Source of the DNA: a virus
DNA: 64,000 nt
Direction: 5' to 3' (one strand)
IMG/VR virus record: IMGVR_UViG_3300047564_002353
Location: 38,000 to 101,999 of that record
The position numbers and the translations under genes are program-made. The notes under the pieces were generated by a model that was given only the letters and a program-made list of their open reading frames with translations, did not search any database and was not told the DNA's origin. Positions within the stretch are counted from its first letter, which is position 1, and each line of letters starts with the position of its first letter. Of the stretch, positions 32,014 to 44,075 are shown piece after piece.

Positions 32014-32060
32014 GAATAACACTTGACAAAATACACTGAAGATAGTATTGTAATGAATAA

Positions 32061-32136
32061 GCACTGATAGCTCAATGGTTAGAGCTAGAGTCTCTAAAGC
32101 TTTAGGTTATGGGTTCGAGTCCCATTCAGTGCACCA
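32061..32136 (+). tRNA. tRNA with CUA anticodon (amber suppressor)
   Basis: Acceptor GCACTGA/TCAGTGC + A-CCA; D-arm GCTC/GAGC; anticodon stem AGAGT/GCTTT with loop CTCTAAA; T-arm ATGGG-TTCGAGT-CCCAT; TTGACA promoter at 32023. Confidence 0.85.
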
Positions 32137-32153
32137 ACTATATAGGAATCAAT

Positions 32154-32408
32154 ATGCCTTATAATTTTGAACTAGCAGCCAGCGCAGAAGTAACTGCGGA
32201 TGTGGTTAAAGAAATGGTTTGTAATCTTGTACAGGAACAAACTGGAAAACATATTGTAGATGTAAAAGTATCCATCATAGAAGGACAGTTCCAAGGCTTT
32301 AAATTAATTTTTGAATCTGAACAAGCTGAATTGGTTTCTGATACAAAACCCATTGACAAAAAACCTAAAGTAATTGATAAAAAATGGAAACCCTTTATCT
32401 GGGAATAA
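32154..32408 (+). CDS. Hypothetical protein
   Basis: AGGA RBS, start MPYNFEL. Confidence 0.65.
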   Translation: MPYNFELAASAEVTADVVKEMVCNLVQEQTGKHIVDVKVSIIEGQFQGFKLIFESEQAELVSDTKPIDKKPKVIDKKWKPFIWE

Positions 32409-32435
32409 TAAATAACTTTTTAAGGAGAAATAAAA

Positions 32436-33005
32436 ATGTCGTAGATTGAATTTGCTTGTACCGACTTAGTTTTCCACTTCAATAAGAAGCACTTGGAAGA
32501 CTCGACCATTCCTATGTGGGTCGTTAAATTTCATGGGGAAACTTACTATGTAGAGCACGTTGATTGTGAAGTAGCGTGGAGCACTAAAGAAACGCCGGAC
32601 AACAGTCATACCAAAGGCAGTATCAAAGTCAAAAATGTATTACTGACTATAGACGACGATAACTGTGCCCGTATTACAACTCTTACCCTAATCGATAAAA
32701 TAAGACTGCGTAACCAAAAGTTAGGCATTACTCGTATTATTTTTCGTTACGGCGATAAGATGCATAACGCTCTACAAAAAAACGAATATAAACACAGTCC
32801 ATTTAAGAACGTCAGCGGCGGTTGTGGTACCAGCTGGGTAGTCTGTGATTTACTCAAAAAAACAGAGTTCACTTTGGCTAGCCTAAAATACTCAACGGAC
32901 TTTAGAGTACTCAAACCAAATGAAGCATACTACAAGGCATACGATGCTCCTGGTACTTATATTGACGAAGATGATTATGAAGAATTTGACACAGAAGAGG
33001 AGTGA
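32436..33005 (+). CDS. Hypothetical protein with an in-frame TAG at codon 3 (amber read-through candidate)
   Basis: TAAATA (32409) and AAGGAG RBS, then ATG TCG TAG ATT GAA..., in frame with track ORF 32493..33005. Confidence 0.7.
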
Positions 33006-33014
33006 TAGTATAAT

Positions 33015-37939: not shown

Positions 37940-38040
37940 ATTATAGCATCACTGCTCAAAAAGTCAACCAAAATATCCCTGATTCGCAAAAATACAACAC
38001 TATCTTTTTTGGTTGACAATTACTCTAGTTCGTGTATAAT
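37940..38040. promoter_or_regulatory. Divergent early promoters
   Basis: Minus TTGACT-16-TATAAT with TG extension (37967-37940); plus TTGACA-16-TATAAT with TG extension (from 38013). Confidence 0.8.
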
Positions 38041-43906: not shown

Positions 43907-43993
43907 GCCCGGGTGGTGAAATAGGTAGACACAAGAGACTTAAAATCTCTCGCTCGAAAGGGCGTGCCGGTTCGATTCCGGCCTCGGGCACCA
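43907..43993 (+). tRNA. tRNA-Leu(UAA)
   Basis: GCCCGGG acceptor, AGAGA-CTTAAAA-TCTCT anticodon arm, long variable arm, GGTTCGATTCC, CCA. Confidence 0.95.
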
Positions 43994-44000
43994 CTAACAT

Positions 44001-44075
44001 CTGGCCGTAGGTAAATGGATATACCAGTAGCCTTCTAAGCTTCTATTCCAGGTTCGATTCCTGGCGGCCGGACCA
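44001..44075 (+). tRNA. tRNA-Arg(UCU)
   Basis: CTGGCCG/CGGCCGG acceptor, loop CTTCTAA, A20 in the D-loop, CCAGG-TTCGATT-CCTGG, CCA. Confidence 0.9.

Follow-up and report, generated by a model that had tools for sequence, protein, structure and literature searches.

Does the amber suppressor tRNA of a large phage that otherwise keeps the standard genetic code serve one particular gene? This question is raised by a locus in a 101,999-bp virus record of IMG/VR (IMGVR_UViG_3300047564_002353; CheckV completeness, 29%; GC, 37.8%). We analysed the 3′ 64 kb of this record (64,000 nucleotides [nt], positions 38,000 to 101,999), which is hereafter called the window and to which coordinates refer unless a genome or locus is named. 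In this locus, a gene for a tRNA with the anticodon CUA [tRNA(CUA)] is followed, about 300 nt downstream, by the ATG of a 189-codon gene whose third codon is TAG. From comparison with related loci, we consider it likely that this gene is subject to a translational gate operated by the suppressor tRNA. Since about 100 diverged relatives keep the same gate, the protein is very probably made only when the tRNA overrides the stop codon.

The amber codon and the code of the genome

The gate reads ATG TCG TAG (32436–32444, plus strand), with one sense codon between the start and the amber codon (32442–32444), and ATT is the next codon. A Shine-Dalgarno sequence, AAGGAG (32422–32427, plus strand), lies 8 nt before the ATG, and a ribosome-binding site (RBS) occurs at the same place in related loci. 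When TAG is read through, the gene (32436–33005, plus strand) encodes a product of 189 codons, P0001, and stops at TGA (33003–33005). The series AAGGAG-ATG-TCG-TAG and the long frame behind it were present where the initial annotation had placed them. Frame 0 continues directly after TAG, and a prfB-type +1 frameshift with an internal Shine-Dalgarno sequence was not found here. The first standard start past TAG is TTG at 32493, 16 codons on and, as had been pointed out, without an RBS.

Four collections served to count the conservation of the gate: 80 related IMG/VR loci with the N-terminal motif, 50 unique sequences compared codon by codon, a further 80 loci of greater diversity, and the 102 unique gate contexts of all sets together. 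TAG occupied the exact site in 80 of the 80 related loci, always directly before I-E-[FY]-A-C, and in all 50 unique sequences and all 102 unique contexts; 75 of the 80 more diverse loci had the TAG gate. An RBS, ATG, and then one to four sense codons precede TAG in the related loci, the leader comprising two codons in 72 of the 102 contexts. The codon before TAG varies freely (Ser, Lys, Ala, or Gln in the unique sequences; 22 different codons in the contexts). The base that follows the gate TAG was A in 96 of 102 contexts, compared with 4 of 24 for the TAG terminators of the closest complete relative. A sequencing error at the TAG, which the initial annotation had named as the first way in which the reading could fail, and chance are excluded because the site is conserved to this extent.

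Codons +1 to +24 past TAG vary almost only synonymously in the 50 unique sequences, while their residues are invariant (for example, Val as GTG, GTC, or GTT and Leu as TTA, CTA, TTG, CTC, or CTG). Third-position variation with invariant residues indicates that the stretch after TAG is translated in this frame. The residues between TAG and TTG 32493 are under purifying selection, and just 4 of the 50 unique sequences have TTG at 32493. The alternative that homologues start at this TTG therefore failed.

A pattern scan of all IMG/VR found neither CAA or CAG nor TAA or TGA instead of TAG before the motif; with TAG, the pattern recovers 119 of 160 known loci. The one-base reversion to CAG, which would free the gene from the tRNA, was never seen among proteins of 61–89% identity and at a GC of 36–45%. 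A protein search with the read-through product gave 1340 relatives, of which the full-length ones start M-x-Q-I-E-[FY]-A-C, and the closest were called N-terminally truncated in the database. On the assumption that gene callers translated TAG as Gln, the Q in these homologues may only reflect that translation. Consequently, the residue inserted at codon 3, which had been expected to emerge from an alignment of homologues, is not readable from them.

We compared the record (G000) with three complete relatives of 338–365 kb (G001–G003), of which G001 is the closest (364,554 bp, 100% complete). The greedy coverage of G001 by open reading frames (ORFs) was 94.7% with the standard code (code 11) vs 94.8% with TAG as sense. 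TAG ended 10 of 165 ORFs in G000, 24 of 427 in G001, 35 of 412 in G002, and 18 of 409 in G003 (4–9%); counts for the 102-kb contig were 10–12 of ca. 170 ORFs. Of the marks of code-15 phages, in which TAG is read as Gln, only the suppressor tRNA(CUA) was found; many in-frame TAGs or a gain in density were not found, nor was a loss of termination at TAG. The gated gene was the sole case of an RBS, ATG, a few codons, TAG, and a long ORF in the 102-kb contig, and it was the one convincing case in G001 of an RBS, a start codon, a few codons, TAG, and a long ORF; each complete genome had one convincing gated gene. Unfiltered lists of ORFs with an internal TAG were dominated by off-frame and upstream artefacts and were replaced by a filter for TAGs at ORF boundaries inside protein alignments among G000–G003. 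The only TAG common to at least three of these genomes with conserved protein on both sides was this gate. No full release factor was found in the three complete relatives, and no gene for a PTH2-family peptidyl-tRNA hydrolase in G000–G003. The initial annotation had already stated that other long genes contain no internal TAG and that TAG, still a terminator, is not globally recoded; both points stood, and its proposal of a minimal one-gene amber switch gained support from the complete relatives, which have no other conserved in-frame TAG and no gain in coding density.

Two observations concern G003 only. Its minus-strand ORF 65414–65683, an IscU/NifU-like gene (VGAPACG...DVMKLQ), carries a 9-nt insertion that holds an in-frame TAG and is absent from G000, G001, and G002, so that this gene may be a second amber-containing gene in G003. 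In addition, its tRNA array contains the gene of a small RF-1-domain protein that may be ArfB-like (G003:C1:111813-112106, minus strand; 139-aa frame).

The suppressor tRNA and its linkage to the gate

The tRNA gene (32061–32136, plus strand) was recognised by both ARAGORN and Rfam, with the anticodon CUA at 32094–32096, A73, and an encoded CCA. The Rfam tRNA model RF00005 matched over its full length (model positions 1–71) with 70.3 bits against a gathering score of 29, and the cloverleaf drawn from the letters alone was thereby borne out. We aligned 42 orthologues of the suppressor. The anticodon loop of 7 nt reads CUA, U33-CUA-A37 is invariant, G1-C72, C2-G71, and A73 are invariant or nearly so, and the encoded CCA is kept. 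Both sides had changed with the pair kept in 13 of the 16 predicted stem pairs, and such compensatory changes indicate that the tRNA structure is under selection. By the identity rules of E. coli, A73 together with U35 would lean towards Lys, and G1-C72 with A73 would speak against GlnRS. A fixed-spacing DNA pattern for CUA tRNAs was rejected as a search tool because it missed known ones and its single match was not a CUA tRNA.

A sigma-70-like promoter candidate, TTGACA-17-TATTGT (32023–32051, plus strand; 10 of 12 matches), lies 9 nt upstream of the tRNA, as had been proposed. No terminator-like site was found in a scan between this candidate or the tRNA and the gated gene. The interval holds an 84-aa ORF (32154–32408, plus strand), which is probably co-transcribed and has no family match. 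It is kept only in the closest relatives at 41% identity, where the gated protein is 88% identical, pointing to fast divergence, and it is weakly similar to a small helical 87-aa protein located between a PTH2 gene and a domain gene in another locus (L191; pairwise E = 1.4e-4).

tRNA(CUA) was found within 3 kb of the gene in 66 of 81 loci, and the co-occurrence of TAG with this tRNA that had been suggested as a check is thus seen. In most cases it precedes the ATG by 17–320 nt on the same strand, and in some it lies a short way downstream; in many relatives, only 17–90 nt separate the end of the tRNA from the ATG. For the gated gene of genome G004, which has none close by, the tRNA(CUA) is 8.5 kb distant. 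In G001, an array of 24 tRNAs occupies 244–252 kb, and the suppressor stands alone at 350,196, adjoining the gated gene.

Other RNA genes were noted in the same genomes. A tRNA-Leu(UAA) and tRNA-Arg(UCU) pair lies at 43907–44075 of the window, away from any array, and G001 keeps this pair plus a tRNA-Met at 361,939–362,186. In the jumbo phage G004, ARAGORN found a permuted tmRNA with the tag peptide ANDEVYALAA at L141 9036–9429, ca. 0.9 kb upstream of the gated gene.

The gated protein and its module

P0001 had no Pfam or PHROGs match, and none of 37 relatives had a Pfam match. Alignment delimits an N-terminal all-beta domain, here called the FHFNK domain (residues 4–85; 32445–32690, plus strand), which is common to stand-alone and C-terminal forms in other phages. 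The predicted model places behind it a C-terminal alpha/beta domain with a ferredoxin-like arrangement and then an acidic tail (32691–32954, plus strand). The AlphaFold model of the N-terminal domain (pLDDT [predicted local distance difference test] 94) is all-beta and resembled nothing in the PDB clearly (best Z 3.5; Foldseek E > 0.6). Several ADP-ribosyltransferase toxins turned up in the fold searches at Z 2.3–3.2, too weak to use. The C-terminal domain was modelled as a generic alpha/beta sandwich (pLDDT 81), and the model of the whole protein matched only generic ferredoxin-like folds (Z ~5). Two identities were tried and rejected: PTH2, for which there was no profile match and a probability of 0.4% in hhalign against gated phage PTH2 proteins, and DUF4313, a weak lead from the ESM Atlas (score 0.82) to which hmmscan gave no support. 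A search for longer fused forms gave one protein, with DUF723, which was uninformative. From the linkage to suppressor tRNAs and PTH2 genes, the gated protein most likely acts on tRNA or translation, an assignment we make with low confidence.

The gated gene closes with tandem in-frame stops, TGA followed by TAG (33003–33008). Its end is overlapped by a perfect consensus sigma-70 promoter, TTGACA-17-TATAAT (32986–33014; 12 of 12), that is directed towards the small gene behind it.

When the N-terminal 82 residues were used as a profile, 141 clusters at 50% identity were retrieved. They show three architectures: the domain first (ca. 190 aa, as in P0001), the stand-alone domain (ca. 85–110 aa), and the domain last (ca. 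175 aa). The five ungated loci among the 80 of the more diverse set start M-I-E-L-A-C or similarly, directly at the residue that follows TAG elsewhere, and the leader and its TAG are therefore an add-on and do not supply a needed residue.

In a distant stand-alone branch, tRNA(CUA) is usually followed by a PTH2-family gene with TAG at about codon 3–9 and then by an ungated domain gene. The gated neighbours were assigned to PTH2 (PF01981) by Pfam in 6 of 6 members (best E = 2.4e-9, others of the set reaching E values up to 1), and a PDB profile search confirmed the assignment (2zv3, 2e-7). This set takes in L191 P0268, which is PTH2-like by eye and had no BLAST match to the PTH2 of phage Phosso (below), yet joined the profile set. 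In this branch, tRNA(CUA) was near even ungated domain genes, within 3 kb in 17 of 22. These arrangements indicate that the FHFNK-domain protein, the PTH2 hydrolase, and the tRNA form a module in which the gate sits on one or another gene.

The module is also found in cultured phages. Rhizobium phage RHph_I1_18 (L136 2477–2726) has an unannotated stand-alone FHFNK ORF that reads ATG, four codons, TAG (codon 6), and then the domain, and its tRNA(CUA) lies 33 nt past the stop of this ORF. In Sinorhizobium phage Phosso (L137 1381–1392), the annotated PTH2 coding sequence starts at an internal ATG, i.e. it is truncated; upstream and in frame are AGGAG, ATG, two codons, TAG (codon 4), and then conserved PTH2 residues. 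The lone tRNA(CUA) of Phosso is 4.4 kb upstream of PTH2 and 250 kb from the main array. Agrobacterium phage Atu_ph07 (L138 1432–1452), a relative of Phosso, likewise has PTH2 annotated from an internal ATG, upstream of which and in frame are an RBS, an ATG, TGA at codon 7, and conserved PTH2 residues. The single suppressor tRNA of this phage has the anticodon UCA (PMC6102473). The gate stop thus pairs with the suppressor anticodon in two cultured phages, TAG with CUA in Phosso and TGA with UCA in Atu_ph07, a match difficult to account for without decoding of the gate by the tRNA. In these three phages, the gate accounts for starts that are missing or truncated in the annotation. Gene callers mis-call gated genes, a point of relevance when large phages are annotated, and the cultured Rhizobiaceae phages make the gate directly testable.

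A further arrangement was seen in a 452.8-kb phage (G005; L183 3300–4576). Behind a tandem pair of tRNA(CUA) genes lies an ORF with the candidate start ATG ATG AGC GAG CTG TAG, and an ungated FHFNK gene comes next. TAG at codon 6 would be a second gate in this phage, and an internal RBS-ATG could be the true start instead.

Proposed mechanism, alternatives, and known systems

The anatomy of the gate, its conservation, the standard code elsewhere in the genome, and the match of stop and anticodon in cultured phages are direct observations. For the mechanism, we infer co-transcription from position, and we also infer that the tRNA is charged, how efficiently UAG is read through, and what purpose the gate has. 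The phage would transcribe tRNA(CUA), probably together with the downstream genes in one transcript, and a host aminoacyl-tRNA synthetase would charge it. The charged tRNA would compete with host release factor 1 (RF1) at the third-codon UAG. In the absence of the tRNA, ribosomes loaded at the strong RBS would yield only Met-Ser, released by RF1; in its presence, translation would go on to the 189-residue protein. Expression would then be confined to cells that contain the phage tRNA in intact and charged form. As the tRNA precedes the gene, apparently with no terminator between them, the supply of tRNA and the mRNA should rise together, and their shared origin would make the gate a coherent feed-forward AND gate, with later and sharper expression as the result.

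Several observations weigh against this proposal. The promoter candidate before the tRNA is weak evidence on its own, as sigma-70-like sites were not enriched in the scan overall (9 found vs 6.5 ± 2.6 expected). The tRNA is close to no phage isoacceptor (best identity 0.64–0.73, to Arg, Thr, Met, and Lys tRNAs), and no clear parent emerged among the phage tRNAs by sequence identity. No tRNA(CUA) was found within 3–4 kb in 15 of 81 and in 24 of 75 gated loci. Ungated members of the family are also near tRNA(CUA), in 3 of the 5 ungated loci as well as in the distant branch, so that the tRNA is not explained by the gate codon alone. TAG still terminates 10–12 genes of the contig and 24 of G001, back-up stops behind these terminators were not enriched, and strong suppression should therefore carry a cost. 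Finally, the production of the tRNA, its charging, and suppression are predictions from sequence.

A wider purpose can be imagined for the gate. The tRNA, the FHFNK protein, and, in other phages, PTH2 might form a self-checking module for tRNA surveillance or counter-defence, the effectors of which would be made only after the tRNA has been transcribed, processed, charged, and used in decoding. The early UAG would then report, as a live sensor, on the state of the tRNA pool in the infected cell or on RF1 activity, for instance when host anticodon nucleases or tRNA-modifying toxins attack, and FHFNK would represent a new fold with tRNA or the ribosome as its target. We regard this as a tentative idea and rather doubtful as a whole.

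Alternatively, the main job of the tRNA may lie elsewhere, in read-through of host UAG codons or in replacing or decoying host tRNAs hit by defence nucleases, with the gate TAG serving as a sensor of a working tRNA. The ungated family members and PTH2 genes that keep tRNA(CUA) adjoining agree with such a role, as do the tRNA-related functions that the module always involves and the orphan suppressor tRNAs known in standard-code jumbo phages (PMC5852040, PMC8504454). However, no second target was identified in this analysis, and this explanation still needs a working gate, differing from the proposed gate in purpose and not in mechanism. We consider it unlikely.

Suppression would be dispensable if ATG-NNN-TAG were a mini-ORF at which ribosomes terminate and then restart at the adjacent AUU or GUN, the tRNA being unrelated. 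Of the 102 contexts, 85 have ATT, ATC, or ATA as the codon past TAG and another 5 have GTN, and AUU is a rare bacterial start codon (infC). However, the codon is ACT, AAC, AAT, AAA, or CAA in the other 12, and none of these is able to initiate. In addition, the stop is always TAG, though TAA or TGA would suit a mini-ORF equally, and re-initiation leaves unexplained both the linkage to tRNA(CUA) and the pairing of TGA with UCA in Atu_ph07 vs TAG with CUA in Phosso. Re-initiation is thus very unlikely.

The initial annotation had also raised an early stage or relic of a genome-wide reassignment of TAG (code 15), the gated gene being the first or last of many; a suppressor tRNA beside a terminator as rare as TAG fits a proposed route to recoding (bioRxiv 10.1101/2021.08.26.457843), and G003 may hold a second in-frame TAG in its IscU-like gene, but we give this reading the least credence of all, since drift would scatter the sites and instead a single one is fixed across the very diverged genomes described above, never reverts to CAG or CAA, and is accompanied in three complete genomes by no other conserved in-frame TAG and by no rise in coding density with TAG as sense.

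A suppressor-operated gate resembles the recoded phages in which TAG means Gln (crAss-like, Lak, and others), for which recoding has been proposed as a post-transcriptional regulator (bioRxiv 10.1101/2021.08.26.457843). In both, a phage tRNA(CUA) would override UAG, and some genes would be translated only once the tRNA is active. In contrast to those phages, where tens to hundreds of late, structural, and lysis genes are involved and density is gained, a single codon of a single gene is concerned here, the gene belongs to an early-looking block of small genes, and TAG still terminates. The large genes of the window, which include those for baseplate wedge, tail fibres, endolysin, DnaB helicase, and primase, are typical of a tailed jumbo phage, and a megablast comparison of the region with cultured phages gave 0 matches. 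The gate would represent the smallest natural case of stop recoding as a switch, one codon and one tRNA in a standard-code genome, and bears on the onset of codon reassignment and on how phages time or condition gene expression.

XacN1, RsoM2USA, Atu_ph07, and Summit are likewise large standard-code phages with a CUA or UCA suppressor tRNA. The target gene was stated not to be identifiable for XacN1 (PMC5852040) and Summit (PMC9022506), and several potential targets were only suggested for Atu_ph07 (PMC6102473) and for RsoM2USA (PMC8504454), with none named specifically for the latter. Unlike in those reports, a conserved target is identified here, and suppressor tRNAs of standard-code phages thereby gain conserved targets. 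We found no published description of a single conserved gated gene in the literature.

The gate would also be a natural counterpart to synthetic amber-suppressor circuits. In the 'leak dampener' engineered in E. coli, a single input is reported to control an amber suppressor tRNA together with an amber-containing target gene, giving AND-like behaviour with little leak (PMC7969014). That circuit was built, whereas the present one is natural, with co-transcription deduced from position.

As in prfB, which encodes release factor 2, an early in-frame stop would make expression hinge on termination versus an alternative decoding event. prfB uses a +1 frameshift at UGA and senses its own product; here, the frame is kept, a dedicated tRNA would decode the stop, and the product is not a release factor. 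Another parallel is provided by the bar minigenes of phage lambda, which consist of ATG, one codon, and a stop behind a strong Shine-Dalgarno sequence and whose toxicity is relieved by peptidyl-tRNA hydrolase. The unsuppressed gate has the form of such a two-codon minigene, and the wider module includes a peptidyl-tRNA hydrolase. Unlike in the bar minigenes, the frame goes on to encode a conserved protein, different codons can precede the stop, and the stop is always TAG.
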